Program-made: the position numbers and the translations under genes | Shown: positions 26,297 through 55,335 of the stretch, piece by piece | Layout of the letters: every line of letters begins with the position of its first letter | Numbering within the stretch: position 1 is the first letter of the stretch | The notes under the pieces: model-generated | Told to the model about the DNA's origin: nothing | Databases searched by the model: none | What the model saw: the letters and a program-made list of their open reading frames with translations, nothing else | Source: a virus | Strand: one strand, 5' to 3' | Length of the DNA stretch: 64,000 nt | IMG/VR virus record: IMGVR_UViG_2681812969_000001 | Location: 4,448 to 68,447 of that record

Positions 26297-26331
26297 TCTG
26301 GATCGCCCCTTTCCTTTGAATTACGGGTGAT

Positions 26332-26976
26332 TTAGGTGCCGCTACGCGCAGAACGCGCCTGATAAGCGCGCATCGCGTCAGCGACCGAACTGGGCTTGCC
26401 GGAGTCGACCGCCCCAGCGGACGGGTCAGGCTTCGGCACCGGGGGAGCCGCGACAGCCGCCAACTCCGCCTTGAAGGCGTCAGCGTCGGCCTCGAACTCC
26501 TCCCGGGTCGTCCCGGACAGGCGTCGCGCCTGCGCGAGAGAGAGGCCCTTTGCGGCGGCGACCTCGTTCCGTGTGCGCTCCTGCTCGAACGCCGCCAACC
26601 TCGCGTTGGCCTCCTCGAGCTGCTTGCGTGCGTCGTCGCGTTCCGCGACAGCGCGTTCCTGCTCCGTCATCTGCTGACGGCGCAGCTCATCCAACTGCGC
26701 CTGCGCCTCATCAGCGCGGCGCTTCTCCTCCCGAGCGGCCTTCCGCTCGGCAGCGATCGCCTTCCGCCCGGCGTCACCGAGACCATCGGAATCGCTCCGA
26801 GACTCCGGCTCCTTCTCAGGCGGCTTCTGCTCATCCTGCTGCTCGTCGGGCTGCCCGCCCTCGTCGTCGGCCTCCATGCGGGCGCCGCCGAACACAGCCC
26901 TGTGGAACGCCAGCAGCGCATCCACGGCGCCAGGAGCGGACAGGTCGAACGGGTAGGGGAGGGAACTTCCAGACAT
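26332..26976 (-). CDS. Capsid scaffolding protein
   Basis: LGDAG.KA..AER coiled coil; VA..KGL..A.RL.G.T.EE..ADA..PKPDPSAG. Confidence 0.88.
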   Translation of the reverse strand: MSGSSLPYPFDLSAPGAVDALLAFHRAVFGGARMEADDEGGQPDEQQDEQKPPEKEPESRSDSDGLGDAGRKAIAAERKAAREEKRRADEAQAQLDELRRQQMTEQERAVAERDDARKQLEEANARLAAFEQERTRNEVAAAKGLSLAQARRLSGTTREEFEADADAFKAELAAVAAPPVPKPDPSAGAVDSGKPSSVADAMRAYQARSARSGT

Positions 26977-27033
26977 GCGTTGTGCTCCGAATCGCTCGGT
27001 TGAAGCCCGCTCGGCGTCGCGCCAGCGGGTGGT

Positions 27034-27867
27034 TTAGGTGATGTACGCGTACTCGCGCAGCAGCCGGACAGCGTCGTCACGGCTCGTGGCGGACGCGAGG
27101 ATCGACTCAGGCATCAGCCGCGCCCCGCGCACACCGGAACGCCCAGCAACACCAGCTCGCGACGTTCCTTCGGACGTCACCAGCACGGAACGCGCACTAA
27201 CCTGTGCAGTCGACATGCCGCGGCGCGCGTTCACGACCTGCCCCATGTCCGCACCCAGCCGGATCGCCTCAGCCCCGGCCTTCCCGAACGTAGCGTCCTG
27301 CTCCGCCCCGGTCAGCGAGTCGAAGTACTCCCGCGGGTCCGTCCGGAAATCCCCGGCCGCGTCCTCCATCGCCGGGATATGCCGGCACGCGCACCGCGGG
27401 TGACGTTGGAAACCGTCGCTCCACCGGTACCAGCGGCCAGCGAGGATCACACACCGGCCGCACGCGCCAGGGTTGACCATCCGCACATACCCGGTCACCT
27501 GCGGGTGCGTCCCAAGTGACACAGCCGCGGCCTGCCGGGCAACGTCCTGCAACTGGGTCTCGACGATCATGTCGAACTGCGCCGCAGTCGCCGCCAACTG
27601 CAGCAGCGACCCTAGGTCACGGCCGTCTGACGCGACCCCAACCAGCGCCTCCGGGCGAACCTCCGCGGCGGGGGAGGGGTCGATGCCCTGCTCGGCGAGC
27701 ATCGCCTCGAACGCCGCTAACGTCTCGGTCGCCGCCGCCAACTGCAGCCCGATCATGATCGCCAACAGCCGGTCAGGTGATTCATCACGTACCCGGCGCG
27801 CCGCGAGCAGACCAAGCGCCGTGATCCGCGCCTGCGTCGCGTAATGCTCAACCGCCGACGACAGCAC
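27034..27867 (-). CDS. MuF-like minor head / capsid maturation protein
   Basis: GYVRM..ACGRCVILAG..FQRHPRCACRHIP. Confidence 0.82.
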   Translation of the reverse strand: MLSSAVEHYATQARITALGLLAARRVRDESPDRLLAIMIGLQLAAATETLAAFEAMLAEQGIDPSPAAEVRPEALVGVASDGRDLGSLLQLAATAAQFDMIVETQLQDVARQAAAVSLGTHPQVTGYVRMVNPGACGRCVILAGRWYRWSDGFQRHPRCACRHIPAMEDAAGDFRTDPREYFDSLTGAEQDATFGKAGAEAIRLGADMGQVVNARRGMSTAQVSARSVLVTSEGTSRAGVAGRSGVRGARLMPESILASATSRDDAVRLLREYAYIT

Positions 27868-29248
27868 CCGCCACCGGCCGCTCGAGCTGGGTTTGCGTGG
27901 CGGCCTGCGTCACGCCAGCCATGATCCGCTCAATCGCCGGGTCCTGCGCCTCAGCCGCCAGATACGCCCGCTCACGGTCCTTCCGGGCCTCGTCCCAGCC
28001 GAGTTCGTCCCACACGCCCTCACGGGAGATCAGGCCCTGCGAGTTCAGCTTCATCATCGCGTCGGCCCGCTCCGACAGGGTCGGGGTCGCGGGGTTCTCC
28101 CAGAGTGTGCGGATCTCGTTCGACTGCAGCCACTCACCGGTGCGGAACCGCTCATACAGGGCCATGACCCACGCCCACGCGTCGCCGTCGTTCGCGTTCA
28201 TCGCCTCGACGTTCATCACGAGCCGTGATTCGTCCGCGCGGATCGCGCCCTCAGCGGCCGGGTTCACCGACTGCTGCCCTGCGTACCGGGTCGGGAGCCC
28301 AAGCACCGCGGCGCACCAGGCGAGCATGTTGTTCACCGACGCGTGGAAGTTGTCCAGCGACGACGCGGTGAACTGCCCGAACTTCGCGTTCTGGTTCGCG
28401 GTCGCCTTGATCGCCGTGAAGTACGTCTCCCACGTCGGCAGCGGCTTCCCGTCATCACCGACGAAATCACCGCGGGACACGCCGATCGCCCACTTGTCCG
28501 GCACCGCGTGCGTCTCCGACGCGACGAGCATGTTCGTGATCAGCCGCGCGATGCCGTCCGTCATGCCGATCACATCGGCCATCTCCGACGTGCCGTCCCA
28601 CCGGCCCGCGCGAGGCCGGTTCAGCAGCATCACCACCGGCACCTGCCCCAGGCGGTGCTCATCGACGTCCTCCACGACGTAGCCGCCCTCACGCAGCGAC
28701 AGCCACACCGTCCGCTCCGGCAGATACAGGGTCTCCAGCGCGTCCAGTGACAGCGCGTCACGCCGCCACTTCCGCAACGCCCCCACCATCCGACGCCGCC
28801 GGTTGTCGACCAGGCACGTCATCTGCCGCGGATCCTCAACCGTCACCAGCGGATGCTCAGGGTCGTCCTCGTTCGTCCCGACCGTCACGAACGTCCGCCC
28901 GAACACGCCACGATCCTTCGCCGCGAGCGGAGCCTGCGAATCGAGGTTGTTCGCCTCCCACGCCTCCCGCAACACCGCATCAGCGTCCGCCGACCCGCGC
29001 CGCTGAAACGCCCTCACCTTCTGCCTGCGGGTCGGCTCATCAACAGCCATCCGCGGCACATTCACCACAGTCTCGAACGACCGCAGTAGCTCATCCGGCG
29101 CGACAATCCCCATGTGCTGCAGACGCTGACGGCCCTCATAGTAGGAGTCCAGCCGGTCCAGCCCGCCGCGTTGACGACCCAGATTCCCCGACATGCGCGA
29201 CACGATGACCTGCTCGTCATCAGAGAGTTTCGAGGCGCGCAGCAGCAC
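27848..29248 (-). CDS. Portal protein (SPP1 gp6-like)
   Basis: 466 aa; YYEG.Q, WEANNLD, H.LG.VPVV..NR..G.SE, W..PATPT. Confidence 0.93.
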   Translation of the reverse strand: MLLRASKLSDDEQVIVSRMSGNLGRQRGGLDRLDSYYEGRQRLQHMGIVAPDELLRSFETVVNVPRMAVDEPTRRQKVRAFQRRGSADADAVLREAWEANNLDSQAPLAAKDRGVFGRTFVTVGTNEDDPEHPLVTVEDPRQMTCLVDNRRRRMVGALRKWRRDALSLDALETLYLPERTVWLSLREGGYVVEDVDEHRLGQVPVVMLLNRPRAGRWDGTSEMADVIGMTDGIARLITNMLVASETHAVPDKWAIGVSRGDFVGDDGKPLPTWETYFTAIKATANQNAKFGQFTASSLDNFHASVNNMLAWCAAVLGLPTRYAGQQSVNPAAEGAIRADESRLVMNVEAMNANDGDAWAWVMALYERFRTGEWLQSNEIRTLWENPATPTLSERADAMMKLNSQGLISREGVWDELGWDEARKDRERAYLAAEAQDPAIERIMAGVTQAATQTQLERPVAGAVVGG

Positions 29249-29268
29249 GAGACAGGCGCCCCTCTCGG

Positions 29269-29874
29269 TTATCGGAAACAGAACACCCGCGTGTCCGGTA
29301 TCTCACTGGTCCATCCGGCAGCCCGCGCATCCGCGGCAGCCTTATGACACACCGCCGCGGCCATCGCAGCGTCGATCTTCTGCGTCTGCGACGGCTTCCC
29401 CAAAATGTACCGGTCACCAGGCCGGGCCAGCCTGCGAGCGTTCCCAACATGCAACCCAGTGACCGGGCACCCGTCGTGCCGCAACGCCCCAGTCCCCAGA
29501 TCCGTCACGAACCGCTCCAACGCCGCATGCATCGGCGGAACCCGATACGTCGGCCACTCCACGAACACCTCGTCGCCGAATTTCCGCGCCCACGACGCGA
29601 TCTCCGACTGCCACAACGGAGGGTCGCAGTACACCCGCTCAAGACGGTACGTGCGGGCGATCTCGTCCCACGCCGCGTGCACCTCGTCACGGGGGGTGCG
29701 GCCACCCCACTCCGCCGGATTCCAGATCGTCGGCCGCGCATCCGGCCCATACCTCGGGGTGAACAACAGCCCGTCGATCGTCTCCAACTTGATCGCCGTC
29801 CAGTCGTCCGTCTGCGCGCCGTCGAACCCGCCACACACCGACGCCCCAGACGGGGGAGGATCAACCCACCTCAT
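29269..29874 (-). CDS. Terminase large subunit, nuclease domain (separate ORF)
   Basis: GFDG..DDWTAI, YCDP..W, KIDAAMAA RNase H-like terminase motifs; ATG at 29874 overlaps the end of the ATPase ORF. Confidence 0.85.
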   Translation of the reverse strand: MRWVDPPPSGASVCGGFDGAQTDDWTAIKLETIDGLLFTPRYGPDARPTIWNPAEWGGRTPRDEVHAAWDEIARTYRLERVYCDPPLWQSEIASWARKFGDEVFVEWPTYRVPPMHAALERFVTDLGTGALRHDGCPVTGLHVGNARRLARPGDRYILGKPSQTQKIDAAMAAAVCHKAAADARAAGWTSEIPDTRVFCFR

Positions 29875-31921
29875 GACCCGCCCACGCGGACTCCCACACA
29901 CCTTCAGGCAGCCACGACCCCGCGCCCTGCACCACCCGGTTACCGAAGAACCGCTCAGCCTGCGCCGGATCATGCACCATCAGCTCATCAGCCTCAGCCA
30001 TGATCGAATCCACCGACACATGCGGCGAATCCCGATACGCGAACTCGATGATCCGCCGCCGCTGCCGCCGATCCATCCACGACAACTCCGCCGGCGGCAC
30101 CGGGTAGAAGATGAACACATCATCCGGGTTCGTCTCGAACGCCCGCTGCGCCGACGAATCCTCCGCAGGATTCCACGGGTTCGTCGTGCACATCCCACGA
30201 CCACCCATGCCGGCCGCGCCACGACGCATCGTGTCCGCCGTCTTGATCATCCCATTGCTCGCAGTGTACGTGCCGTGCTCGTCCTGCACGAACGCTGAAA
30301 TCGGGTTACCAAGCCGGGACAGCGCCGCCGACGTCACCGCGTCAATCCGGTCCAGCTCCGGGTCGTCCGGATTCTCACCCACGACCCGAATGAACTCCTC
30401 GCGCGGCAACAACAGATTCCGCAGCGGAGAGTCGTTGAAACGGACCATCGTCGTCAACGGCCGCCAAATGTTGTCCACCTGATCCTGCGACGTCGCCAAC
30501 ACCTGCACCAACGGCGACGGATGCCGCCGACCCATCGGCTCACCCGGCTCATACTCCCAATACCAGCCGCACGGGCAGCCATGGTCCGCGCAATCCCACA
30601 CGTCACCACGCTTCGCCCACCCAGCGAACAACTCCGGCCCAACAGCCATCACCGCGACGTAACACGCCGACATCGGGCCCTTGCCGGTGTTGCAGGTGGG
30701 GATGAACTCCCGGCCAGCTAGGAACACGTGCGAGTCCGCCTCGACGGTGATGCACTGCGTCGGTACCGTCTCAATGCGGTCGACAGCGACAATCCGCCGA
30801 TGCTGGAACTGACCGTGCCCGCGCCCCGGAGGCTTCAACCGCTGCTGCTTACGCGGCAACGAGAACACCGGCATGTCAGAACGCGCCGCGAACGCAATCC
30901 GCCACTTCGGGCCAGTCGCTACCCCATTCAACGTGGCAACGCCCTCGTAGCAACGGACCTTGACGCCCAGCGACCACAACAACGCTGTCACGCCGTCCCT
31001 CAACGCCGGCAGAGTCGTCGTGAACTCGCACTTCCCCTGGCGCTCATCCGCGTAGCCGTCGGTATCCATCAGGCCCTGCAGCAACTCCCACCGCTGCCGC
31101 TCGGACGCCCACAGGTACCGCTCCGGTATGTGCTTGTTGCCGAGCACGCCCGCGCCTCGCAGTAACACCATCAGGCCGTGCACCTGCCGGCGCTTCTGGA
31201 CCGACGTGCGCGTCACCCGGAAACCGTCAGCCGCGATGCGGTCGAACACCTCATCGTCGACACCGACGACCCGACCATCAGCACGGCACCCGTCACCAAG
31301 CCACGCGCCCAGCGTGTACGGCGGAACAGGCAACTCCGCATCCGGCAACTGCACCGGCTTCGCGTTCGGCACCCGATACCGGTGAGCACCGCCGCCGTCG
31401 CGGAGGTTCCCAACCAAGTCCTCCGTGCGGACCCGCTCGATCTTCACACCACGACGAGACCGACGCTCAACCCACCACTGGTGATCCTTGCAAGCGACGA
31501 GCGACGAACCATCAGAGAACGCCACCCGGTACGTGTCCGAGCGCCACACCGGAGACTTCGACAACACGCGCGTCGGCCGACCCGACTCATCAAACACGAA
31601 CGCACCGACAGGAACATCACCGATCGTCGACCACCCATCGGTAGTCGCAACCGGCGTGTCCAACGCGAGAGCCTTCTGGGCCATCACGACCTCAGACCGG
31701 CGGTACGTGAACGCCTGATTCAGCGGCGGATCATCCGGGTCATACGTCGCGTCCTCACGCACCCGGTAGTGATTCGCACCAACCCAGAACTGCCAGTCGT
31801 ACTGCTTGAACGGCCGCCGCCGCTTGAACCCATCCGGGATGCGGCAATGCTGCTCGATCCAGCCGTCTACCAGATCCCCGAGAGTTGGGAAATCGACTGC
31901 GCCGACACGATCACTGTGCAT
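29861..31921 (-). CDS. Terminase large subunit, ATPase domain, intein-containing
   Basis: FPTLG, Walker A AQK/TGKG interrupted by an intein, ATSQDQV.N, Walker B FVQDE, TTN coupling motif. Confidence 0.9.
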   Translation of the reverse strand: MHSDRVGAVDFPTLGDLVDGWIEQHCRIPDGFKRRRPFKQYDWQFWVGANHYRVREDATYDPDDPPLNQAFTYRRSEVVMAQKALALDTPVATTDGWSTIGDVPVGAFVFDESGRPTRVLSKSPVWRSDTYRVAFSDGSSLVACKDHQWWVERRSRRGVKIERVRTEDLVGNLRDGGGAHRYRVPNAKPVQLPDAELPVPPYTLGAWLGDGCRADGRVVGVDDEVFDRIAADGFRVTRTSVQKRRQVHGLMVLLRGAGVLGNKHIPERYLWASERQRWELLQGLMDTDGYADERQGKCEFTTTLPALRDGVTALLWSLGVKVRCYEGVATLNGVATGPKWRIAFAARSDMPVFSLPRKQQRLKPPGRGHGQFQHRRIVAVDRIETVPTQCITVEADSHVFLAGREFIPTCNTGKGPMSACYVAVMAVGPELFAGWAKRGDVWDCADHGCPCGWYWEYEPGEPMGRRHPSPLVQVLATSQDQVDNIWRPLTTMVRFNDSPLRNLLLPREEFIRVVGENPDDPELDRIDAVTSAALSRLGNPISAFVQDEHGTYTASNGMIKTADTMRRGAAGMGGRGMCTTNPWNPAEDSSAQRAFETNPDDVFIFYPVPPAELSWMDRRQRRRIIEFAYRDSPHVSVDSIMAEADELMVHDPAQAERFFGNRVVQGAGSWLPEGVWESAWAGHEVG
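30689..31672 (-). mobile_element. Class 3 intein with LAGLIDADG homing endonuclease (328 aa)
   Basis: Starts at Ala (ALALDTPV); block B DHQW, block F TQCITV, ends IPTCN|T; LGAWLGDG and LQGLMDTDG endonuclease motifs. Confidence 0.9.
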
Positions 31922-32375
31922 CGCCCGCCGCACGCAGACGCCGCTCACGCTTCACCGGATCCACCGCCGGCCGCTGCGAACGCTGCGCCGCGACCTCATC
32001 GACCGCGACCTTCCAACCCATCTCCGCGAGACCAGCCGTCGTCAACCCAACCTGATCCGCCAGCCGATGCAACTGCGCGAACAGCGACGCCGGAGCGTCC
32101 GCATCCTCACACCGCACCGACACCCGCACCCACAACGCAACCGTCCGCGCACGCCACGACTCCGAAGGGAGCGACCACGCACACGCCTGCGGCGTCCGCC
32201 ACGCCCACTCCCACACCTCAAGCTCCCGCTCGAGCGGAACCGGCAACGGCCAATCCGGAACCGGACCCCGGAATCCCTCAGCAGGAAGCGCCGTCAGCGT
32301 GAAACCGCGGGCATCAGACCGCGCAGAACCCTCCACGGGCTTGTGATTTCGGTTGCGGCGACCGCCACTCGTCAT
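31911..32375 (-). CDS. Terminase small subunit
   Basis: MTSGG.RNR..LPAEG..P.WPL..W..AWRTPQA.AW..Q.GLT.AG. Confidence 0.85.
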   Translation of the reverse strand: MTSGGRRNRNHKPVEGSARSDARGFTLTALPAEGFRGPVPDWPLPVPLERELEVWEWAWRTPQACAWSLPSESWRARTVALWVRVSVRCEDADAPASLFAQLHRLADQVGLTTAGLAEMGWKVAVDEVAAQRSQRPAVDPVKRERRLRAAGDAQ

Positions 32376-44832: not shown

Positions 44833-44987
44833 TTCTCGTCCTTCCCGGCCTGCCACTGCGACTGGTGAATCCGCCACGCCGCGTGCAAAGCGCCCGCGAT
44901 CGTGCGGGCCATCACCGTGACCGGCTCGAACACGAACCCGTCACGCTCGATTGTGATCGTGTACCGGCCCTTATCTCTCGGTGTCAC
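44829..44987 (-). CDS. Small hypothetical protein
   Basis: Coupled by GTGA overlaps. Confidence 0.45.
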   Translation of the reverse strand: MTPRDKGRYTITIERDGFVFEPVTVMARTIAGALHAAWRIHQSQWQAGKDEK

Positions 44988-45631
44988 CATGCTCCGATCA
45001 GTCGCTCCGCGAGCTGCTCGCGGAGAGGGAATGCCGCGATCGACGCGGCGATGAGAACACACACGGCCGCTTCGGCGGGCGAGCCGGTGGTGAAAGCGCG
45101 GAGCCCCCAGCGACGGCCGTCGCGTCCGGGGGCTCCGCTTGTGGTGAGGGAATCACCGACAATGTGTGTGGCGACCCCTATGGCGGCGGGTATCGGCAGC
45201 CACCACGCATCCCAATCGAGCGTGGTCGCGCCGTACCCGCACGCCGCCGACACGAGAATGTTCGCGCCGCCCTGCACATTCGCACCGGCCGACAAGAGCA
45301 TCCCGACAGCGAACGCCACCGTGAACGCCTGCCCGTAAGGCGCCATCCACGCGACAGCGACAAGAACCGCCGTCCCTATCGACGCTCCAACAATCTGGTG
45401 CGTCGCGCCACGATGACCAAACACACGCCCAACAACGCCCGCAGGGACACGAGACAACGGCCCCCACATCCGCGCCGCATTCGACCCAGGATGGTCAATA
45501 TCCGGCGCCAGCGAAAACGCAGCAGACGTGAACGTCCACACCACCTGAGCCGGAACACCAAGCGGCGCCACAGCGAGACTCGACCACAAGCCCGTGGCGA
45601 AACCCGACGCCATGTGAGAAACACCCATCAC
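44984..45631 (-). CDS. Membrane metal-dependent hydrolase (YdjM family)
   Basis: MG.SH..G, PDIDHP.S, GHRGATH, THIVGD.LT..G motifs plus TM segments. Confidence 0.85.
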   Translation of the reverse strand: MMGVSHMASGFATGLWSSLAVAPLGVPAQVVWTFTSAAFSLAPDIDHPGSNAARMWGPLSRVPAGVVGRVFGHRGATHQIVGASIGTAVLVAVAWMAPYGQAFTVAFAVGMLLSAGANVQGGANILVSAACGYGATTLDWDAWWLPIPAAIGVATHIVGDSLTTSGAPGRDGRRWGLRAFTTGSPAEAAVCVLIAASIAAFPLREQLAERLIGAW

Positions 45632-45930
45632 GACAGTGACCGCTGTTCCTTCTTGCATTCAGCGCCACACACGCCGTCTGTATCATCGCGGTTTGACCAG
45701 ACCATCGGAGCCCCGCATTCGGGGCATCCGTCGCCGCCCTCGTAGGCCGTGGCTTCGGGGTCGCGCCAGAACACCAACGGCGTCGCCGCAGCCTGGCCGA
45801 CAGCCGACCGGGCGTCCCACCCGGTCGCCACCACCGACCTCTGAAACGGAACCTCGGCACCCACAAGCTCGACCGTCACCCGCCACCTGAACCCCGACGT
45901 GGGAACGATCGGGGACTCATCACCCGTCAC
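45628..45930 (-). CDS. Small zinc-ribbon protein
   Basis: CPECG..C...C. Confidence 0.55.
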   Translation of the reverse strand: MTGDESPIVPTSGFRWRVTVELVGAEVPFQRSVVATGWDARSAVGQAAATPLVFWRDPEATAYEGGDGCPECGAPMVWSNRDDTDGVCGAECKKEQRSLS

Positions 45931-46127: not shown

Positions 46128-46200
46128 GCCGAACCACCTTCCAGACAGCGCGAGAGGAGCCCCCGACAGGCGTCGGCGAGCCCCTCTCGAACCACGATTC

Positions 46201-46346
46201 CGTGTAGCGCGCGCTACACGTCCTGAGCACAAACAGACACCCGCGCAACGGGGCGTAGCGCACGTAGCGCAAACCCCTATCTGTGCAGGTCACACCCCTC
46301 TCCGGGCGTAGCGCACGACGTAGCGCACACCCAGGCTTGTAGCGCA
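46201..46346. repeat. 20-bp perfect palindrome plus five GTAGCGCA direct repeats
   Basis: CGTGTAGCGC|GCGCTACACG at 46201-46220; GTAGCGCA at 46255, 46264, 46308, 46320, 46339. Confidence 0.85.
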
Positions 46347-47065
46347 GCCCATTTCAGGCCCTTCTCACTGCTCGGAGCCCCGCCGGCGAGGGGCCGCGCG
46401 GACACCCGCTCAGCCTTCCCCGCAGCGTCCAACGCTGCCCCGAGCTCGGCCTCCGGCACACCAGTCAGGCCCGCCAGATCCGCGACGTGAACCGCGCCCT
46501 TCGGGGTCTTCCGGCGCTCCGGCCACACCTGCTCAAGACGCCCCGGCAGCGACTCATCCGGCTCCGTCTCGGGCTCCTCGTCGTCGCCGCCGAGGTCCAC
46601 CATCACCGGCCGCTGATGCAAGGTGACCACCCGCGGCGGCACGGTAACGAGCGGCTCCGGCGGCGGGGTCCGGTCCACCACGTACAGCGTCCGCGTCGGA
46701 GCCTCCACCTCCTCCGGCTCCTCGAGGTCGTCGTCGGGTTCGATGCGGGGCCACCACGCGACGACCGCAACCCACAGCCACAACGTCACCGGCGCCAGCA
46801 TCCCCGGCAGAAGCCACCACTGCGGCGACCCCCAACCGGCGAATCCGGCGGCGGTCGACACCAGACACCACGCCAACGCGGGAATGAACCACGCCAGGAT
46901 CGGGCGCGTCACCCGACGATCGGGCGAATTCGCGTCACGCCACCACGCGTAAAGCGTGGCAGCCATGATGAACGCCACGGTCCACAACCGCGGGCCGGCG
47001 AAATGAAAACCGCCCCACAATGCGAGCGGGGCGGCCAACACTGTCCAGAAACCACGTTCTCTCAC
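46277..47065 (-). CDS. Membrane protein with acidic/Pro linker and C-terminal HTH-like domain
   Basis: ~4 N-terminal TM segments; C-terminal AVHVADLAGLTGVPEAELGAAL. Confidence 0.65.
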   Translation of the reverse strand: MRERGFWTVLAAPLALWGGFHFAGPRLWTVAFIMAATLYAWWRDANSPDRRVTRPILAWFIPALAWCLVSTAAGFAGWGSPQWWLLPGMLAPVTLWLWVAVVAWWPRIEPDDDLEEPEEVEAPTRTLYVVDRTPPPEPLVTVPPRVVTLHQRPVMVDLGGDDEEPETEPDESLPGRLEQVWPERRKTPKGAVHVADLAGLTGVPEAELGAALDAAGKAERVSARPLAGGAPSSEKGLKWAALQAWVCATSCATPGEGCDLHR

Positions 47066-47322
47066 GACGCCGCCTCCACCGTCGGGAAAGCGTCGAGAAC
47101 CCCGACCTGCTCCGGCCTGGCAGTGACGACACGGCCCGTGCCGATCAACACCACCTCGACCCGCGCCGCACCGAACAGCAGAAGCGGACGCTCAACCGAC
47201 CGGACAACACCAAGCTGCCCAGCCGACGCCACAACCCGATCCTGCAGAAACGACACCGCCTCCACCACATCACCGCGCAGCACGCAGAAATCACCAGGCC
47301 GCGGCTCACGCTCCAGCATCAT
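47062..47322 (-). CDS. Small hypothetical protein
   Basis: 86 aa, coupled to neighbours. Confidence 0.5.
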   Translation of the reverse strand: MMLEREPRPGDFCVLRGDVVEAVSFLQDRVVASAGQLGVVRSVERPLLLFGAARVEVVLIGTGRVVTARPEQVGVLDAFPTVEAAS

Positions 47323-47731
47323 CGAAACCTCCCAAATCCTGACCGAAAGATTGAGTCAACGGGACATCACGGCGGCCCGCGTCCCACGCCACCGCCAACG
47401 CCGCCCAATCCGCGATATCCACCTCATGATCATCATCCACCGGAAGATCAGCCGCGATCGACGCATGCATCACACACGCCGCCGCCCACATGTTCACCGC
47501 CGGAGATGAACCAAGCGTGTCGTTCAACCAGCCCGTCACACGAACCTGCCCGGTACGTGCCCACCAATCCGCGTGCTCCTGAGAAACACCGACCCGCATC
47601 GACACAAGCGCCGCCGCCGCGAGATCCGGCTGCGTTACGAGAACCATCGGATTAGCGGTCGCCTCCACCGCCGCGGCGAGACGCTGAACAAGCGGGTCAT
47701 CAGCCGGGCATCCAGTCACGCCACCCATCAT
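47306..47731 (-). CDS. Hypothetical protein
   Basis: 141 aa; ATGA overlap. Confidence 0.55.
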   Translation of the reverse strand: MMGGVTGCPADDPLVQRLAAAVEATANPMVLVTQPDLAAAALVSMRVGVSQEHADWWARTGQVRVTGWLNDTLGSSPAVNMWAAACVMHASIAADLPVDDDHEVDIADWAALAVAWDAGRRDVPLTQSFGQDLGGFDDAGA

Positions 47732-48747
47732 GACGTCACCGACACATGCACGTGGTCCAAATGCTGCATCGTGTTCCGCTGCGCCTCCGTCTTCGCTGTA
47801 GAAAGCGACGGGTTACGGTACGGCCGCCACCCTTCACCGGCGCGGCTCGGGTTCCAGATCTTCGCATCCCAAATGACGTACTTCACGTTCAACCCCGCGG
47901 CGTTCTTCTCGAACCAGCGCGCAACCTCCCAACCCTTCGCCCGACCATCCGTGGTGTTCCAGCCAGGGACCATGAAATCCACTGCCCGACCAGACGGGTG
48001 ATCCGACGGGCCAGGGCGGCCACCGACACCACCGAGCTCCGTGATGTACGGCCACGCTTTCTTCCCGCACCTCAACACCCGCAACGCCTTCGGCTGCAAA
48101 CCCTTCTCCGCGGAAGAACCAGACGCCGGGCAATCACCGACAGCAGCCACGGGGGCCGGTGCTTTACACGACGCGGCCTTACCCTCGATCGCCGCGACAA
48201 TCGCCGACGCCCGCTCCATCTGATCCGCATACCTCGTCGGGTACGCCGACCGCTGCACAGCCTGCGCCACCGCGCCCGGATCCATGCCGCGCCAGCCCGG
48301 CACCAACCGCTTCATCTCCGCGAAGAAGTCATCCGCGGCCCTGTCGACGTCGGTCGAATTCATCCAGCCCTTCGACGGACGCTGCTGCAACCATCCCTTC
48401 GAGTCCCGGTCACCGTTCGGCAGATTCTTCAACCGCGACTCCACCAGCCCGGCCGCGACGATGATCCGCGCGCCCTCCGCCCCGGTCCCGGCGCGCTGAG
48501 CCGCCCGGTACCCGCGGACCGCGATGTCAGCCTGCTCCCGGTCCAGGTTCGGCACTGGACCGACACAGCCAGCAAGAGACGCGGCACTACTGCCCGGCGC
48601 GGCCTGACGGGCTTGCGCGGCCGCCGGCGCCGCAGCAGCAGCGCCAGCAGGGGTGAACGTCTCACCCCCACCACCGCCGCCACCGGAGCACGACGCGAAC
48701 ACGCCAAGCCCGACCAGAGCAACCGCCACCAGGCCCTCACCCCTCAC
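47728..48747 (-). CDS. Putative lipoprotein cell-wall hydrolase (lysozyme-like + metallopeptidase-like), VirB1-like role
   Basis: Lipobox-like FAS-C; LVES.L.NL..GDRDS.G..QQRPS.GW..AQAVQRSAYP..YA; C-terminal SDH..GRAVDFM..HLDHVHVS. Confidence 0.75.
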   Translation of the reverse strand: MRGEGLVAVALVGLGVFASCSGGGGGGGETFTPAGAAAAAPAAAQARQAAPGSSAASLAGCVGPVPNLDREQADIAVRGYRAAQRAGTGAEGARIIVAAGLVESRLKNLPNGDRDSKGWLQQRPSKGWMNSTDVDRAADDFFAEMKRLVPGWRGMDPGAVAQAVQRSAYPTRYADQMERASAIVAAIEGKAASCKAPAPVAAVGDCPASGSSAEKGLQPKALRVLRCGKKAWPYITELGGVGGRPGPSDHPSGRAVDFMVPGWNTTDGRAKGWEVARWFEKNAAGLNVKYVIWDAKIWNPSRAGEGWRPYRNPSLSTAKTEAQRNTMQHLDHVHVSVTS

Positions 48748-49292
48748 GACCCGCCCTCAACGTCGCCGTCGGTGGAGGTCACCGGGTTGTCCACCGGCTC
48801 CCACGACTGCACCAGCCAGTCACCACGCAACTGCTGCACCGCCGTCACCCGCACCCGCGGCGTCACACCCTGACCGCCGGCCGGGGTCACCCGCAGCCAC
48901 ACGTCACACCGCGGGACCTGACCGGCCGTGGCCTCCACCACCGGGGTACCAACCGGCACCTGATCCGGGTCGATCGCCGACACTCCGGCCCGCAGCTGCG
49001 GCTCCACCCAGCGCGCCACCGACCCCGGCCAATCCGACCGGTCCGGCCCGAAGAAGTCGACCGCGAACCCACGCACCGCGCCCTCACACGACGACCGCTG
49101 CCCCTGCATCCACGTCGCCTCCCGAGCGCCGTGCGCCGACATCCACACGGCCCGCCCGAACAGCAACACCACCAGCACCGCGACGACCGCGGCGGCCACC
49201 CCAACCCGGGATGGCCGCCGCAGAAACCACGCCGCGACAGAACGCGACCTACTCGACCCTGCGAGTGACCGCCGCGACCTCGACGAGGACAT
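48744..49292 (-). CDS. Bitopic membrane protein, VirB8/TcpC-like
   Basis: AAGGAG RBS; one TM, then A.RGFA..F..W and a terminal W.V strand pattern; position within the module. Confidence 0.55.
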   Translation of the reverse strand: MSSSRSRRSLAGSSRSRSVAAWFLRRPSRVGVAAAVVAVLVVLLFGRAVWMSAHGAREATWMQGQRSSCEGAVRGFAVDFFGPDRSDWPGSVARWVEPQLRAGVSAIDPDQVPVGTPVVEATAGQVPRCDVWLRVTPAGGQGVTPRVRVTAVQQLRGDWLVQSWEPVDNPVTSTDGDVEGGS

Positions 49293-51372
49293 TCGTGTGC
49301 TCCTTCTGTGTGATCGTCGTCGCCGCAGCCACCCGCAGCCGGGCCAGCTCAGCGCGAACCTCATCCGACAACCGCGCCGAATCCGGCGGGATCTTGTTCA
49401 CTCGCGGCGAGTAGCCCGGCGAGGTTGTGTCGACCGGGTCGGGCAGCCGCCGAATCCGCGGCTCCGGCGCGCCGCTCGAGTCCGGGGCGTCGGTGACGAC
49501 AACCCCTTGGACGACCTGCGTGGACGCGTCCGACCGCTGCTGCTGCTGTTCGGTGTCGAACTGCTCGGCGGGGATGAACCGCACCGGCCGCTGCTGCGGC
49601 AGCGGGGCGGCCTGCTCGGCGGCGCCAGTGTCGGCGGAGCCGGGTTCCCACGCAGCCTGCCCCGGGACCTGGCCGGTCGCGGCGCGGCGACGCCGCGTCC
49701 ATCCGGGACGCCCAGCATCCTGAGCGCCCGACCCATCACCACCACGGCCGCGGTCGCGGTTGCTGATCTGCAGCTCCCGAAGGATCTGCCGCAACACCCC
49801 GACCACGCCACGCGCCGACTGATCCACACCAGTCCGCGCATACAGCTTCGACCGGCCACGACGCCATGCCATGCGGGCCACGACGAGAATCGCGAGCATC
49901 CACCCGAACTTCCCCATCGTGCCCACCGTCGTAGCCGACAGAATCCCGCCGACCACACCGACCGTGAACGCGACGTACACCACGGTCGCGGCGAACGCTG
50001 TCACGAAGAACGTCGACAGCCACCCGACTGCCGCGCGGGCCATCCACTGGCACTCCGGGAACTGCGCCACCAGAGCTGCCGCCGGCGTGAACGCCACCAC
50101 CAGCTCAAGCGCGAGGCGGGCGGCGCCGACCCAGAACAGCGTCCACAGCAGGAAGTACGCCGCGGGGAACGCCCCGACCGCTCCGAGGAGTGCCTTCCAC
50201 GGACGCTCCGATGTATCGGATCCGGCGAGGGTCCGCTCGTAGGTCGCGGGGAACTCGGCCTTGTACGCCTTCGCGACCGCGAGGTAGTCGGCCTTCTTCG
50301 CCGCGTCCAACTGCGCCGCGTAGGCCGGGTCGGCTGCGGCCTGCGCCTGCTCGGCCCGGGTCATCGCGCCCGCCGCGAACAGTCGCATCGCGTACTTGTC
50401 CGCAGCGGCCTTGTCGGCGCCGAAGTTGATGTCGACGTAGGTGGGCCACACGATCTGCTCCCACAGCACGTCACCGATCGCTGCGTCCGCCGACGCACCG
50501 GCCTGACCCGCCGATGACGCCGTGCCGGTCGCCATCGTGGAGTACACGGCCGTCACGCCCTGCGACACGAGCGACCCGGCCGTGATCGGCACAGCGAGGG
50601 TGATCGCGCCGGCGGCGAGGATCACCGCGCCCTTCCACGTCTTCTCCCGGGACTCGGCGGTGTCGCCGTTCCCGGCGCGGAACGCGTGCCACAACGCGGT
50701 GGCACCGACGAGCGCGGTGAAGAAGAACAGCCACGCCCGGTAGCCCATCGTGTACCGGACGAACGACGTCAACGGCGTCAACACCTGCCACAGGCCGTCC
50801 GCGGGTTCGAGGACGATCTGCGCGGCCTGTGTCGACGCGGCGAGCATCGTCACCTGCGCCTGAATCAGGTTCCCCGCGGTCGAGTTCGCCGGGTCAGCGA
50901 CCCGCTTCTGCGCACCCGTCGTGGACAAGTCCAGGCCGACCGGGCAGCCTGGGTCGTGGATCACCGGCGCGAGACCGCCCCACCCGTAGGTGGAGTAGAA
51001 CCCGGTCCCCGGATGCGACGGGCCCGGGTCGATCCGGCCCGCCAGGCCGTCCGTGGGGGTCCCGACCGTCGGGAGGATCTTGCACCGGTCCCCGATCACC
51101 GCTGCCGCAGCTGCCTGACCGGCGTCCGACCCGGCCGCCGCGCCCGCTGCGCCTTTCAACGCCTCCGCGGCACCCAAGCCGGGGATGAGGCCTCGGACAG
51201 CGCCGCGCAAAGCGGCACCGGCGAGGTCACCCGCCGACGCCCCCTGCTCGGTGGCTGTCGGCTGCGGCGTCGGGGCAGGGGTGGGGTCCGCAGCGAACGC
51301 GGCCCCACCCCCACCCAGCATGAAAACGGCCGCCACACCAGCAGTGGCAGCCAACCTACGCAAGCGGGTCAT
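49249..51372 (-). CDS. Polytopic membrane protein, VirB6/TrbL-like
   Basis: 707 aa; signal peptide, LW..IVWP..NFG segment, multiple TMs, disordered C-tail; follows the VirB4-like ATPase. Confidence 0.65.
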   Translation of the reverse strand: MTRLRRLAATAGVAAVFMLGGGGAAFAADPTPAPTPQPTATEQGASAGDLAGAALRGAVRGLIPGLGAAEALKGAAGAAAGSDAGQAAAAAVIGDRCKILPTVGTPTDGLAGRIDPGPSHPGTGFYSTYGWGGLAPVIHDPGCPVGLDLSTTGAQKRVADPANSTAGNLIQAQVTMLAASTQAAQIVLEPADGLWQVLTPLTSFVRYTMGYRAWLFFFTALVGATALWHAFRAGNGDTAESREKTWKGAVILAAGAITLAVPITAGSLVSQGVTAVYSTMATGTASSAGQAGASADAAIGDVLWEQIVWPTYVDINFGADKAAADKYAMRLFAAGAMTRAEQAQAAADPAYAAQLDAAKKADYLAVAKAYKAEFPATYERTLAGSDTSERPWKALLGAVGAFPAAYFLLWTLFWVGAARLALELVVAFTPAAALVAQFPECQWMARAAVGWLSTFFVTAFAATVVYVAFTVGVVGGILSATTVGTMGKFGWMLAILVVARMAWRRGRSKLYARTGVDQSARGVVGVLRQILRELQISNRDRGRGGDGSGAQDAGRPGWTRRRRAATGQVPGQAAWEPGSADTGAAEQAAPLPQQRPVRFIPAEQFDTEQQQQRSDASTQVVQGVVVTDAPDSSGAPEPRIRRLPDPVDTTSPGYSPRVNKIPPDSARLSDEVRAELARLRVAAATTITQKEHTNVLVEVAAVTRRVE

Positions 51373-53852
51373 GACGCCCGCTCACCCCACAACGTGGCCA
51401 TCTTCGGAGCCTCCTTCGACGGAGTCGTCAACGACGCCCGCCTCACGTCGGGCGCCCACCAGCCGGTGTCGTGATGCACGTGCCGCACCCGACCATCGAA
51501 ACCGCGGACCGTGAAATCACCCGTCCCAAGCGACGGAAGCCGGGCCGCGTCCACCGGAGCGAGTCGCATCATCCGCGCCATCACCTCAGCGTTCGCGCCG
51601 ACCACCCGGCCGCACAGCGTCTGACCCACCAGCGACCCGATCAGGTCATCACCGAGCCGGGACATGGCCGTCGGGGTCTGCATCAGCCACAGAATCGCCG
51701 CATCAACCTTCCGCGACGTGTACGCCGACCGGCGCATCAACGTCGCCATCGCCGAGTGCCCAGCGAGAGTCACACCCAGCTCGTCATCGATCTGCATCTT
51801 CGGGTCCGTGTCAGCCCACAGGCTGAGTCCCGCCAGACGAGACGCGCCGAGCAGGATCGGCACCGACTGGTGCATCCCGACCGTCCAGTCATGGCGGTCC
51901 AGACCGATGTCCGGGATTTCGATACCCGGCATCGTCAGCACCGTCACGCCCGCCGACGACACGGACCTCGTCAACCGATCCGCGTCCACGTCACCCGCCG
52001 GGAAGCACAGCATCCCCTCAAGCGAGTCACGCTTCCCGCGCAGCAGCTTCCCGACCCGCCGCCCGGCGTCGCCCTCGCGGTCGAGGGCATCCAGGATCGT
52101 CGAGGAGTGCTGCCCGTAGGCGCCGCCGACCTCGTTGCACGCCGCGGACACAGCCCGCATCGCGTCACGGTCGTCAGCGAGTTCCCACGCGCACGCCCGG
52201 GTCATGTCGACCGCGAACGCCACCCGCTCAGCCCGCGCCGCCCGCAACGCACCAGCGTGTTCGGCGTCGCTGGTGCCGTCGGTCTGCACCGGGTCCGGGA
52301 TCAGCACGTGCGGCATCAACGCCCCCTGAGGGGCCTGTGTCGTCACCGGTATCTCACGCCCGTCCACACCCGGCGTCTTCACCAGACGCGCCATCCCCGA
52401 ATGCGGCGACGGGTCCGTGATGATGACCCGCCGGCCGACCTCGTGGCAGTGGGCGGCGGCGCCGACACCGACCGTGGACTTCCCCGTACCGAGACCGCCG
52501 ACGACGAGGGTCACGCCGGACCCTTCGACGTCGGTGCGGCTGGTCTTCGCCCTAGGGCCCTCCCACCAGTCCATGACGAGGTTCTCCCGGGTGCCGTCAA
52601 CCGCGCCGAACAACTGCCCGACCGTCGCACCAGCACGCCCGGAGGAGTTCGGGACCCCAGCGGCCCACACCCGAGCCGAATCCTGCGTGACATGCCCGTC
52701 GAGCCGGAACAGCCGGCCAGGCTCCATCGACTCCCAGTCCGCGTACTGCCCGAGTTCGTGGCTGACGGTCGCGTGGATCTGGTCGTCGGCGTCCTTCACA
52801 ACCGAGGTGACGGCCTTCGCCGCCGCCTCGTGCGTGTCCCGTGGGAGGGCGACCTTCACGACGGCCTGCACCCGGTAGGAGTCGATGCGGTCCTGCGCGC
52901 GCAGTTCACGGTTGACCTGCACGGCGCGGGCGATGCCGTCCTCGACCTCGGGTGTCGGGTCGTACCCGGCCTTCGCCGAGGAACGCTCGTGGGAGCGGTT
53001 CTCCCGCAACCGCAGCTGCATGTCTTTGCGCAGCTCCCCGGGGGATACGACGGTGCCCTGCGCGACCAGGTAGGTGCGGCCCGGGCGGCGCCCGAACCAC
53101 GCCAGCCACGGCGGCTGCGCGGCCGAGTCGAACCCGGTCGGGGCGGTGTCGACACGCACCACCGGCACCCACTGCTCCACCCGGTCACCCGCGTGGAGCG
53201 TCGACAGGTGCGTGTTCGGCTGCATCGGGTCCGCCGACGGCGTAACCGCCCCGGCGCCGGGGAGGCCCATGCGGGTGAACTCCCGGTGCAGGTCCTCGAT
53301 CTGCCCGGCGGTCAGGCGACGCCCGTACCCGCCGATCACGTCATCGAGGAGACGGACCTCGTGCTGCACCTGAGCGAACTCGGACAGCTCCGGCGCGAGC
53401 GGCGCGCCCGGCTCGCACAGCGGCAGATGCTCCCGCGCCACCGCACGGTCGGCGACCCGGACCGCCAGGACGCACCGCCACCACGCCGCACCCAGCGAGG
53501 AGTGCACGAACGCGTCCGCCATCCGGTCCAGGTATTCCCCGGACGCGCCCGGGTACTCGGCGTCCTGCGCCGCCCGGAACGCCGCCCGGTCCGGCGACTC
53601 GTGCCACCCGAACCACACCAGGCGCCGCCCGACCAGGTCCGGGTACATGCCGGCCTGCGCGGCGATGACCTTGTCGACCCCGGCGCCGAGACCGATGGTG
53701 TCGACGTCGTTCAGCAGCCAGAACGCGAACGTGGTTCCGGCGGCCGGGTGGGTGAGGAACCGGCCGTGCGCGTACGGCTCCTCCGCGCGGATCCGGGCAC
53801 GCTCGGCCCGGCTGCTACGCCACGCCGTCAGGCGGGCAAGAGGGGTAGTCAC
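51369..53852 (-). CDS. VirB4-like (AAA_10) ATPase
   Basis: ~827 aa; Walker A GGLGTGKST (52473-52499), IITDPS, Walker B QIDDE, SRK..LMQ; AGGAG RBS. Confidence 0.78.
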   Translation of the reverse strand: MTTPLARLTAWRSSRAERARIRAEEPYAHGRFLTHPAAGTTFAFWLLNDVDTIGLGAGVDKVIAAQAGMYPDLVGRRLVWFGWHESPDRAAFRAAQDAEYPGASGEYLDRMADAFVHSSLGAAWWRCVLAVRVADRAVAREHLPLCEPGAPLAPELSEFAQVQHEVRLLDDVIGGYGRRLTAGQIEDLHREFTRMGLPGAGAVTPSADPMQPNTHLSTLHAGDRVEQWVPVVRVDTAPTGFDSAAQPPWLAWFGRRPGRTYLVAQGTVVSPGELRKDMQLRLRENRSHERSSAKAGYDPTPEVEDGIARAVQVNRELRAQDRIDSYRVQAVVKVALPRDTHEAAAKAVTSVVKDADDQIHATVSHELGQYADWESMEPGRLFRLDGHVTQDSARVWAAGVPNSSGRAGATVGQLFGAVDGTRENLVMDWWEGPRAKTSRTDVEGSGVTLVVGGLGTGKSTVGVGAAAHCHEVGRRVIITDPSPHSGMARLVKTPGVDGREIPVTTQAPQGALMPHVLIPDPVQTDGTSDAEHAGALRAARAERVAFAVDMTRACAWELADDRDAMRAVSAACNEVGGAYGQHSSTILDALDREGDAGRRVGKLLRGKRDSLEGMLCFPAGDVDADRLTRSVSSAGVTVLTMPGIEIPDIGLDRHDWTVGMHQSVPILLGASRLAGLSLWADTDPKMQIDDELGVTLAGHSAMATLMRRSAYTSRKVDAAILWLMQTPTAMSRLGDDLIGSLVGQTLCGRVVGANAEVMARMMRLAPVDAARLPSLGTGDFTVRGFDGRVRHVHHDTGWWAPDVRRASLTTPSKEAPKMATLWGERAS

Positions 53853-54276
53853 ATCGACTCCTGAATCGGGTAGGAGGCGCCACCGGCGCCCCCACGGTGA
53901 GGGGGCCGGTAGCGACCGGGATAGGTGAGGCCCCGACAGCGGTCGTGTCAGGGCGGCGGGGCGCCGCGGCTTCCGACCGCAGCACCCACAGCAGGTACGG
54001 GAGAGGCTTCTGCGGTTTCTCGTGACGGCCCACGACCCGCAGTACCGAGACCACGGTCGCGAACCCCGCGACAACCGCCGCCAGGGCGGCGGCGATCAGC
54101 CACCACGGGCCCGCGCCAAGCACGGTCCCGACGGACCAGAACGCCACCCCGTACGCCGGGACCGTGACGGCCATCCCCGCGAAACCGCGGATCCACATGT
54201 GCCAGCGGAACTCCCCGGGAAGCTCGGTCGCGATCTCCTCGACACGGTTCGCCGCGTCGTCGGACTCGTAGATCAT
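53815..54276 (-). CDS. Two-TM protein, VirB3/TcpE-like
   Basis: Two TMs; directly upstream of the VirB4-like gene. Confidence 0.55.
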   Translation of the reverse strand: MIYESDDAANRVEEIATELPGEFRWHMWIRGFAGMAVTVPAYGVAFWSVGTVLGAGPWWLIAAALAAVVAGFATVVSVLRVVGRHEKPQKPLPYLLWVLRSEAAAPRRPDTTAVGASPIPVATGPLTVGAPVAPPTRFRSRCDYPSCPPDGVA

Positions 54277-54629
54277 CAGCCGGAGAACGCCGCCCGCAGG
54301 AACCACCCGGCAGCGCCGACGAGGAACACCACGAACCCGATCGCGGACACGGTGCCCCACCCGATCGCGGAGGCCATGACGACGCCCTGCTGACGGGTCT
54401 TCTGGGTGTTGCCCTTCCCCGCGGAGAAGCTCTGGGCGATGGCGAGCCACCCGACCGCGACGGCCAGGAGGAACAACAACACTCCGACGAGGAACGACAT
54501 GGACGGCGCGAGCCCGGTACTGGAGTTCGCGAGCTGCGCGAGCTGCGAAGACTGGTTCCACACGCCAGCGCCAGCCTGGGCCGCCGCTGTCGCGGTACCG
54601 CCCGGGGTGGGGATCGGGTCAGGGTTCAT
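54276..54629 (-). CDS. Small two-TM pilin-like (VirB2-like) protein
   Basis: 117 aa; two hydrophobic helices with a basic loop (AGKGNTQKTRQQ); AAAGGA RBS; first gene of the module. Confidence 0.55.
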   Translation of the reverse strand: MNPDPIPTPGGTATAAAQAGAGVWNQSSQLAQLANSSTGLAPSMSFLVGVLLFLLAVAVGWLAIAQSFSAGKGNTQKTRQQGVVMASAIGWGTVSAIGFVVFLVGAAGWFLRAAFSG

Positions 54630-54653
54630 GATTCGTGTCCTTTCGATGAGGAA

Positions 54654-54682
54654 GGGCGGCCACCCCCGATGGGTGACCGCCC
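54654..54682. terminator. Hairpin upstream of the conjugation-like operon
   Basis: GGGCGGCCACCC-CCGAT-GGGTGACCGCCC (one mismatch). Confidence 0.5.
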
Positions 54683-54701: not shown

Positions 54702-55019
54702 TCAGGCCGGTTCGACCCGAACGGGGGTGAGAGACAGCCACCACACGGGCCGCTCAGGAACAGGCGGCTCCCAGCCGCCCTGGAACATCAGACCGGCCGC
54801 TGCGAGCGGCGCCCACGGCGCGCACGGCCCGGGGTCGATGACGCGGAACCGGTAGGGCGCCTCGTCGAGCCGCTCGGGTGCCGTGGTGAACCACAGCCAG
54901 CCGCCTTGACGGCGCCGCCACCCAGCCGGTTTCGCGTACCCGGACACGCGCGCACAGCGGGCCGCGCCAGGGTCGAACGTCACCCACCACAACGGCCCGT
55001 CAAGCGGCAGCACGGTCAC
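54702..55019 (-). CDS. Hypothetical Trp-rich protein
   Basis: 105-aa ORF. Confidence 0.45.
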   Translation of the reverse strand: MTVLPLDGPLWWVTFDPGAARCARVSGYAKPAGWRRRQGGWLWFTTAPERLDEAPYRFRVIDPGPCAPWAPLAAAGLMFQGGWEPPVPERPVWWLSLTPVRVEPA

Positions 55020-55335
55020 GTGGCTTGCGCTGACCGACCGGCCGATCCGGCAGTAGCTGAGGGTCCGCCACGAACTCGCGGAACGCGGGGAACGGCCGGA
55101 ACTTCGGCGCCCGCGTCGGCGGGATCACCAGGCCCTCACCCTTCCGCGGGTTCCTGCCCACCCGCGCAGCCTTCTCGACCCGCTCGAACGAACCGAACGC
55201 CGCCACGCTCACTGTCCCGCCCGCCGCGACCTCACGGACCACGACGTCGAAGAACACCTCCAACACCCTGCGCGTGGTCGGCTCGTCGACCTCGGCGCGG
55301 GTCGAAACCGCCCGGATGGCCTGCTGCTTGTTCAC
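55000..55335 (-). CDS. HU-family histone-like DNA-binding protein
   Basis: VNKQQAI..V...FGSFERVEKAARVGRNP..GE..I..RAPKFRP. Confidence 0.9.
   Translation of the reverse strand: MNKQQAIRAVSTRAEVDEPTTRRVLEVFFDVVVREVAAGGTVSVAAFGSFERVEKAARVGRNPRKGEGLVIPPTRAPKFRPFPAFREFVADPQLLPDRPVGQRKPRDRAAA

Follow-up and report, generated by a model that had tools for sequence, protein, structure and literature searches.

The window, a stretch of 64,000 nucleotides from viral record IMGVR_UViG_2681812969_000001, belongs to a complete temperate tailed phage that carries an actinobacterial VirB4 mating-channel cassette. Tentatively, we favour the view that this cassette forms a contact channel passing phage dsDNA to neighbouring cells, TraB-style and relaxase-free, with a motor that would be either borrowed or VirB4 itself. 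Phages and conjugative elements are usually seen as separate DNA-moving routes; if this view is true, a tailed phage with a contact channel of its own would be a genuine phage-conjugative hybrid and could enter neighbouring cells that are receptor-resistant.

The phage was found as a complete 74.6 kb prophage in a tRNA-Leu gene of an actinobacterium. Its att pair is a 28-bp direct repeat in tRNA-Leu(GAG) (C1:20940-20967 and 95571-95598), a tyrosine-integrase-like ORF was located at L001:4044-5231 by blastp against Pfam-named integrases, and PHROGs gave terminase, portal, scaffold, capsid, tail tube, tape measure and endolysin. With att pair, integrase and full head, tail and lysis sets, the element is a temperate tailed phage, as complete as the preliminary description had proposed. 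The same description had placed the cassette between phage replication genes and accessory/late genes, which agrees with the HU gene and a weak RusA match, both upstream of the cassette and co-oriented with it. Phage early regions are mosaic, and here the similarity of relatives stops at 56285-56309. One run, X14, covered the flanking phage genes without the cassette and was considered as a cassette-free sister phage, but its contig gaps make it no proof. The features are as follows.

6989..31948, minus strand: genes for lysis, tail and head in the host prophage (PHROGs matches)
44984..45658, minus strand: YdjM-type membrane hydrolase (family match)
46200..46345, minus strand: clt-like repeat cluster, seven GCGCTAC copies around the TGACCTGC spacer, with an 18-bp palindrome at its end
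46277..47065, minus strand: 262-aa protein, candidate motor-less TraB-like DNA tether (borderline TraB C-terminus match)
47062..47322, minus strand: 86-aa protein, no family (ORF and family search)
47306..47731, minus strand: 141-aa protein; in G176 a counterpart (39-44% alike) follows the hydrolase too
47728..48747, minus strand: VirB1-position cell-wall hydrolase, 339 aa, lipoprotein-like N-terminus (PHROG endolysin and tape-measure lysozyme-like matches)
48744..49199, minus strand: VirB8/TcpC-position bitopic protein (topology and position)
49249..51372, minus strand: extended VirB6/TcpH-position polytopic protein, 707 aa (five hydrophobic segments, conserved place after VirB4)
51369..53852, minus strand: VirB4-family ATPase, 827 aa (GGLGTGKST and IDDE motifs, fold)
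53815..54276, minus strand: VirB3/TcpE-position membrane protein, 153 aa (relatives have it immediately upstream of VirB4)
54276..54629, minus strand: VirB2/TcpD-position small protein, 117 aa, two TM (hydropathy; heads the cassette in relatives)
55000..55335, minus strand: HU-like protein encoded by a phage early gene that lies upstream of the cassette (family match; joined to the cassette by independent contigs)

The six cassette genes (VirB2/3/4/6/8/1-like) lie on the minus strand with overlapping stop and start codons, confirming the tight coupling and the ORF positions reported before. Pfam, NCBIfam and PHROGs left the five non-hydrolase proteins unnamed, with no family match for the VirB6-position protein, and neither Pfam nor NCBIfam gave a TcpE match for the VirB3-position protein. 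The latter, previously given two TM segments, is a membrane protein with one strong TM by hydropathy scan; the polytopic nature of the 707-aa protein was upheld. A relative of the VirB2-position protein gave a weak T4SS_pilin match (E 0.033). The VirB8-position protein measures 151 aa from the likelier GTG and 206 aa from the longest start; its comparison with TcpC was not significant (E 4.5), its Atlas leads stayed below 0.9, and a VirB8 fold is not established. Relatives of the hydrolase contain M23, NlpC/P60 or VanY domains. The B3-, B6-, B8- and B1-like neighbours of VirB4 fit those of MPF_FA systems in order, size and topology, but no TcpE, TcpH or TcpC match reached significance; the gene order is, as first read, that of the conserved Gram-positive mating-pair cassette. 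According to PMC12857230, MPF_FA T4SS (pCW3 Tcp, Tn916, ICEBs1) likewise have an AAA_10/TcpF-type VirB4 immediately preceded by a B3-position gene, together with an extended VirB6-like protein of ~700 aa, a B8-like protein that is bitopic and a hydrolase acting on the wall. Unlike them, the window cassette has no TcpA/VirD4, relaxase, or TcpE or TcpC family match, and it sits in a tailed phage.

The identification of the ATPase as VirB4-like was borne out. The window protein shows the VirB4 fold over its full length and has both Walker motifs, A and B (motifs and fold comparison; model pLDDT 91.6), and it matched structure 4ag5 (E 1e-9) and TrwK (E 5e-22, TM 0.53 over 858 columns). Walker A K458 and Walker B E691 are invariant in 69 relatives, and the AAA_10 cut-off was passed by four scanned relatives plus G016. 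In a 27-member cluster of variants, 12 of the 15 members listed are full length; they carry 8-42 substitutions, of which not one falls in Walker A/B. A relative at 69% is also full length. Scans of INPHARED, PLSDB and IMG/VR, weak and dependent on conserved words, returned no match to the window VirB4, and an equally weak, word-dependent scan of JGI/ENA metagenomes matched one short fragment.

We looked at 65 relative loci. A TraB or TraB-like gene stands beside the cassette in 24 of them and TrwC in none; others are pump-less chromosomal copies. AICEs, linear plasmids and two further phages carry the cassette together with a TraB/FtsK pump, and on the linear plasmids pRVR2 and pVAPN2012 the same cassette adjoins an annotated FtsK gene. 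The usual partner of the cassette is thus a TraB/FtsK dsDNA pump and not a relaxase with VirD4, so the absence of a relaxase is expected, and the real gap in the window phage is TraB. No TraB with an FtsK motor domain was found in the prophage or in the host assembly (97.8% complete, 336 contigs), where a weakly matching second FtsK was actually a HerA/YjgR protein. The preliminary description had noted that relaxase and coupling protein were missing, and the prophage gave no TcpA/VirD4 and no match to the two relaxase profiles used, TrwC and Rep_trans. Its overall interpretation holds for VirB4, gene order and recurrence in phages, and fails where it took a relaxase and VirD4/TcpA as needed partners.

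Relaxase-free dsDNA conjugation is known from TraB/clt systems (AICEs; pSVH1 and pSAM2; linear SAP1 and SLP2), where a membrane protein gene likewise has a repeat cluster at its 3' end. The present system differs from them in being carried by a phage, in having a VirB4 cassette as well, and in that the window copy lacks a motor domain. Two reviews present TraB as acting without any T4SS subunits (PMC3218068, PMC12857230), and clt repeats are read by TraB C-termini (Thoma 2015, PMC4447253). The 262-aa gene of the window ends on a repeat cluster resembling those behind traB genes. At least five [GC]CTA per 150 bp were counted at 21/25 traB ends against 48/13,299 host tiles; the window site has eight, and the TGACCTGC spacer is common to it and to traB ends, while an nhmmer profile of traB-end sites did not recover it. 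A low-confidence model gives the protein four N-terminal helices, an acidic linker and a small C-terminal alpha/beta domain. Against TraB C-termini it scored 17.2 in hhalign with a 27-sequence profile, borderline next to a shuffle maximum of 17.9; a shallow 3-sequence profile was not significant and hmmsearch gave no match. Its Atlas matches stayed below 0.9, fold search returned generic helix bundles, and a search for longer relatives found none; full-length relatives stand at 96, 92, 88 and 60%. These features weakly support a putative tether that would bind the clt-like repeats in which its own gene ends (3') and link phage DNA to the channel. Neither this protein nor the repeat cluster as a possible DNA tether figured in the preliminary description.

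The same module had been proposed as something to look for in other phages, and two phages unrelated to the window phage carry the cassette with TraB among their early genes. The G708 prophage is myovirus-like and ~86 kb long, with a 24-bp att repeat ~86 kb apart and sheath, capsid, portal and terminase. The third carrier, IMGVR_UViG_3300044899_000013, has an endolysin and a truncated portal; no terminase was found in this linear record, of which 16 of 36.6 kb were read. TraB with an FtsK motor domain is present in phages G708b and G1154. G1077, G720 and G089 had initially been taken as phage-like, but inspection showed no virion genes. The VirB4s of the window and G708 fall in distant clades and that of the third carrier is 75% identical to an AICE copy; therefore, judging from these sequences, the three phages apparently made three separate captures. 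The G708b VirB4 matched three INPHARED records at 25% identity, one annotated as a conjugative transposon protein, and also Tn916-type and Bacillus/Clostridium plasmid proteins.

Since the cassette travels elsewhere with a dsDNA pump and has two unrelated phage carriers, direct DNA passage between touching cells is predicted to be possible. The cassette would be turned on with the early genes after induction; by VirB homology, the hydrolase would open the wall, the B2/B3/B6/B8-like proteins would form the channel and VirB4 would power its assembly. The 262-aa protein, sitting on the clt-like repeats, might then tie phage DNA to the channel, and candidate motors are VirB4 itself, the FtsK of the host, or a TraB supplied by another element resident in the cell. 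A bolder version, which we hold with less assurance, is that actinobacterial temperate tailed phages repeatedly captured a VirB4 and TraB dsDNA machine and use two routes, virions and receptor-bypassing cell-to-cell transfer, and that in the window lineage the pump has been reduced to a membrane tether, which would pass clt-marked phage DNA on to VirB4 or the FtsK of the host.

A different origin and use of the cassette is conceivable, though we think it rather improbable: a relaxase-less secretion or cell-junction system derived from a chromosomal copy, which would serve the lysogen or infected cell by exporting proteins or acting on neighbours and would move no phage DNA. Pump-less copies occupy conserved chromosomal sites in seven f13 loci (beside acyltransferase/upp/tadA), 22/22 f26 genomes and 4/4 g16 genomes; they are the closest genomic relatives of the window VirB4, which is sister to the g16 copies in the tree, as is the G708b VirB4 to the f13 copies. 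In the closed genome G016 the sole FtsK is the chromosomal one, and the cassette, being without TraB, is therefore retained there for some other purpose. In both the window and G708 prophages the cassette is followed by large genes whose products look secreted, and MOBless T4SS are read as protein exporters in Guglielmini 2011 (PMC3158045). Against this, TraB is kept in two of the three phages, the clt-like cluster is kept in the window phage, and no effector or immunity gene was identified. The many pump-less copies, which keep the secretion reading alive, were absent from the preliminary description.

That the block is a drifting passenger, acquired when the phage recombined with an AICE or plasmid and since stripped of TraB, would suit the missing pump and the mosaic early regions, but it is unlikely given the intact cassette kept across the phage's relatives (full-length copies across the 27-member cluster and the 69% relative), the 262-aa gene intact down to 60% relatives and the apparently three separate captures. 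Classical ssDNA conjugation with a host relaxase in trans is very unlikely: two TrwC relaxases exist elsewhere in the host (C109, C9), but profile searches gave no T4SS-DNA_transf coupling protein and no Rep_trans there, and TrwC, the relaxase family covered, adjoins none of the 65 loci. We give hardly any credence to misassembly or to a nested ICE with its own ends. The link between cassette and virion genes comes from the single 336-contig assembly, but wastewater contigs from two independent studies, ~98% alike, span the cassette and its phage neighbours, which makes misassembly unlikely. As reported before, the cassette edges show no integrase and no GC break; the sole integrase and att pair are the phage's, the two flanks share chance-level repeats only, and no AICE-type integrase, Rep or att ends of its own were found.

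Returning to a channel for phage DNA, a close precedent is the phage-ICE tandem, where prophage DNA also enters new cells through a conjugation machine; PMC13651849 states that these are two accreted elements and not hybrids, whereas the window transfer genes are part of the phage early region itself, and there is neither a second integrase nor an adjacent second element. Relaxase-less VirB4 loci (PMC3158045) and single spread genes on actinophages were already known, and SpdB2 homologues on some of the latter might spread phage DNA (Thoma 2015, PMC4447253); our literature search found no description of a whole VirB4 cassette in tailed phages, with or without TraB. The survey also reveals a widespread unannotated module: AICEs and linear plasmids carry VirB4 cassettes beside TraB, and in entire actinobacterial families pump-less copies are fixed. 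It makes testable both contact in TraB transfer by non-filamentous actinobacteria and VirB4 DNA movement without a coupling protein. By position and sequence inspection, TraB is followed in phage G708b, and likewise in G361, by a gene similar to the YdjM-type one of the window.

The host genome, G000 (4.7 Mb, 336 contigs, high GC), contains the window at C1:24038-88037, within a 74.6-kb prophage. Its boundaries are the two copies of a 28-bp direct repeat located in the end of tRNA-Leu(GAG) (C1:20940-20967 and 95571-95598), and an ORF resembling an integrase occupies its left end. Family matching revealed head, tail and lysis genes; replication and recombination genes were also present, and nothing among the phage genes scanned matched a tail sheath. 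The cassette, six translationally coupled genes on the minus strand, was found where the preliminary description had placed it. As that description had also held, there is no composition break (genes of the block have 63-72% GC, ten other phage genes 62-74%), and blasting one flank against the other for att-like repeats at the cassette edges returned chance-level repeats only. Part of the block was present in 20 of the 24 public sequencing runs listed, and single contigs from two independent studies join the cassette to its phage neighbours. Record 23 of run X5 spans 44827-56285 with 255 differences from the window, while records 5 and 6 of run X12 are overlapping pieces over 43020-56309 with one short stretch replaced. 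Since the bridging contigs stop short of the virion genes, the link between these and the cassette rests on the G000 assembly; an artefactual arrangement is hardly credible. The cassette in the window phage is real, conserved and recurrent.

The 827-aa ATPase was left unnamed by the family libraries (Pfam, NCBIfam, PHROGs) and was matched by 154 cluster representatives; related ATPases in the clusters include two named members, from Dermatophilus and Arsenicicoccus. When a profile of 69 representatives was compared with the PDB, Thermoanaerobacter VirB4 ranked top (E 1e-9), and in a fold search the predicted structure (pLDDT 91.6) matched full-length R388 TrwK/VirB4 (E 5e-22, TM 0.53). HerA and TrwB both ranked well below TrwK/VirB4. 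K458 and E691 are invariant in the relatives aligned. Within the proposed VirB core, VirB4 is supported by profile and fold; the other five proteins take their assignments solely from gene order, size and topology, and the Tcp labels on the cassette genes are partly putative.

A search with a single protein detected the cassette in 16/400 genomes from the family; the frequency was 35/400 in the order and 31/400 in the class. We read 65 loci over 5-160 kb each, with genes from our own caller and labels by blastp to Pfam-named proteins. TraB, an FtsK-type dsDNA pump, was present at 21 loci and a TraB-like gene at 3 more, while the TrwC relaxase was found at none of the 65, so it is normal for this cassette to lack a relaxase. 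The relaxase and VirD4-type partner that had been expected are therefore not its norm: what it usually travels with is a dsDNA pump. At 17 of the 21 TraB loci there was also an integrase with RepSA, Prim-Pol or another Rep-like gene, which is the plan of an actinomycete integrative conjugative element (AICE); many pump-less loci were read over ~20 kb only, where absence of TraB is weak. In PLSDB, 753 plasmids match the G708b VirB4. Three were opened: the six-gene run adjoins an annotated FtsK gene on pRVR2 and pVAPN2012 and an unnamed ~680-aa gene on pSSFR2, and PLSDB typing places a MOBF relaxase elsewhere on pVAPN2012.

Some of the other copies are clearly fixed in chromosomes. In family f13, seven loci share acyltransferase/upp/tadA neighbours beside a pump-less cassette; in f26 the cassette occurs in 22/22 genomes, with an upstream gene unlike that of f13 at the 8 loci viewed. 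Copies in g16 and G005 lie amid housekeeping genes over 79-100 kb, and G016, a single-contig genome with the cassette, has the chromosomal FtsK and no other pump. Conserved-site copies were seen in f26 (e.g. L151, L153, L159), f13 (L093-L097, L122, L123) and f79 (L155, L161, L162). Neither pump nor relaxase was found near the fixed copies of these three families, which are possibly a domesticated, undescribed actinobacterial cell-contact or secretion system.

The same module was sought in other phages and found in two:

G708:C1 ~5,849,700-5,935,900: prophage of ~86 kb, unrelated to the window phage, with a 24-bp att repeat
L102:8054-19785: GntR, cassette and TraB of the G708 prophage
L216:2047-11180: cassette and TraB of IMGVR_UViG_3300044899_000013 (36.6 kb, linear; 16 kb read)

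The G708 prophage is myovirus-like, with tail sheath, baseplate, capsid, portal and terminase. On the 3' side of its replication genes come GntR, the cassette, TraB (763 aa), a membrane/coiled-coil protein of 334 aa (presumably SpdB2-like), a YdjM-like gene that is split and a protein that looks secreted, an order that echoes the window phage. A VirB4 identical to the one in this prophage occurs in IMGVR_UViG_2923649072_000003. The N-terminus of the prophage's TraB carries a Cys/His-rich, HNH-like motif. Among candidates for a self-sufficient phage-conjugation hybrid, this prophage is the strongest. In the third phage the order is hydrolase-B2-B3-B4-B6-B8-TraB, with the hydrolase shifted to the front and small phage-type ORFs interspersed; an endolysin follows TraB and a truncated portal lies at the far end. 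A quick tree (LG+G4; 66 VirB4 sequences), which drew long-branch warnings, grouped the window copy with metagenomic relatives and the chromosomal copies of g16, and placed the G708b copy with those of f13. The third phage's VirB4, outside the tree, is 75% identical to the copy of AICE G215a. The simplest reading of these sequences would be three separate captures, whether by phage from chromosome or in reverse.

For the window prophage, searches bore out that neither a relaxase (TrwC and Rep_trans families covered) nor a coupling protein is in view. TraB and Rep_trans were not found in prophage or host, nor T4SS-DNA_transf or a second VirB4 of the window family in the host; two TrwC genes lie on other host contigs (C109 and C9; L057:5-3355 and L058). 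The host has two TrwC relaxases and no coupling protein detected. TraB's place is occupied by another gene:

46277-47065, minus strand: 262-aa membrane protein

It is full length in relatives, at identities down to 60%, and its low-confidence model has four helices and a small alpha/beta domain. Against 27 TraB C-termini it aligned over 65 columns (28%, E 0.013), a score that the top one of 100 shuffles equalled, and it was not retrieved by hmmsearch. The 3' end of its gene holds seven GCGCTAC copies within 142 bp, the sole such cluster in the host genome. At 21/25 traB ends of the subfamily that gave these C-termini there are at least 5 [GC]CTA per 150 bp, usually with a TGACC(T/A)G spacer amid the repeats; the density is reached in 48/13,299 host tiles. 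The window site has 8 [GC]CTA and the spacer in an arrangement unlike the traB ends, and a DNA profile of traB-end sites did not retrieve it. Directly behind traB (L191-L215) the layout is conserved: palindromic xCTAx repeats are followed by the spacer and further repeats, the repeat letter varying by element; this plan would suit a clt family that lends itself to analysis of how its code is read. From PMC4447253 we infer that the repeat clusters may be clt. The 262-aa protein has about even odds of being a DNA tether.

As the likeliest reading, at a little under an even chance, we predict that the cassette forms a contact channel carrying phage dsDNA; the TraB-bearing cassettes of the other two phages would likewise form one. 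That the window phage is a true phage-conjugation hybrid is a more tentative proposal. Service in secretion or to the benefit of the host is less likely than the DNA channel and yet a strong rival, because the nearest genomic kin of the window cassette keep it without a pump. A mere passenger is improbable: in the VirB4 cluster (27 members), 12 of the 15 listed are full length and the 3 shorter ones lie on short contigs, and 11 variants differ by 8-42 residues each, none within Walker A or B. Transfer by a relaxase route is very improbable.

The cassette in a phage is assembled from known parts. We found no description of tailed phages encoding one in the literature, mostly non-subscription journals; supplementary AICE or prophage tables could hold it. 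The SAP1 study (Fukada 2025), as cited elsewhere, may have reported a VirB4-like partner for a Streptomyces translocase.

Other genes of the prophage were noted. The terminase large subunit (29861-31948) has an insert at ~residues 88-311 that resembles inserts of primases/helicases and is likely an intein. A large secreted-looking protein (42548-44647), NosD/pectin-lyase-like with a weak GH26 match, resembles the tail protein at 10935-13832; a second, Pro-rich and of unknown kind, lies at 40666-42147. A sigma-factor-like gene, identified by inspection, adjoins the integrase at the late operon end (L001:5959-6726; C1:22958-23725), and a phage early protein (L002:6170-7306; C1:92169-93101) carries a long tetrapeptide repeat encoded by 12-bp units.
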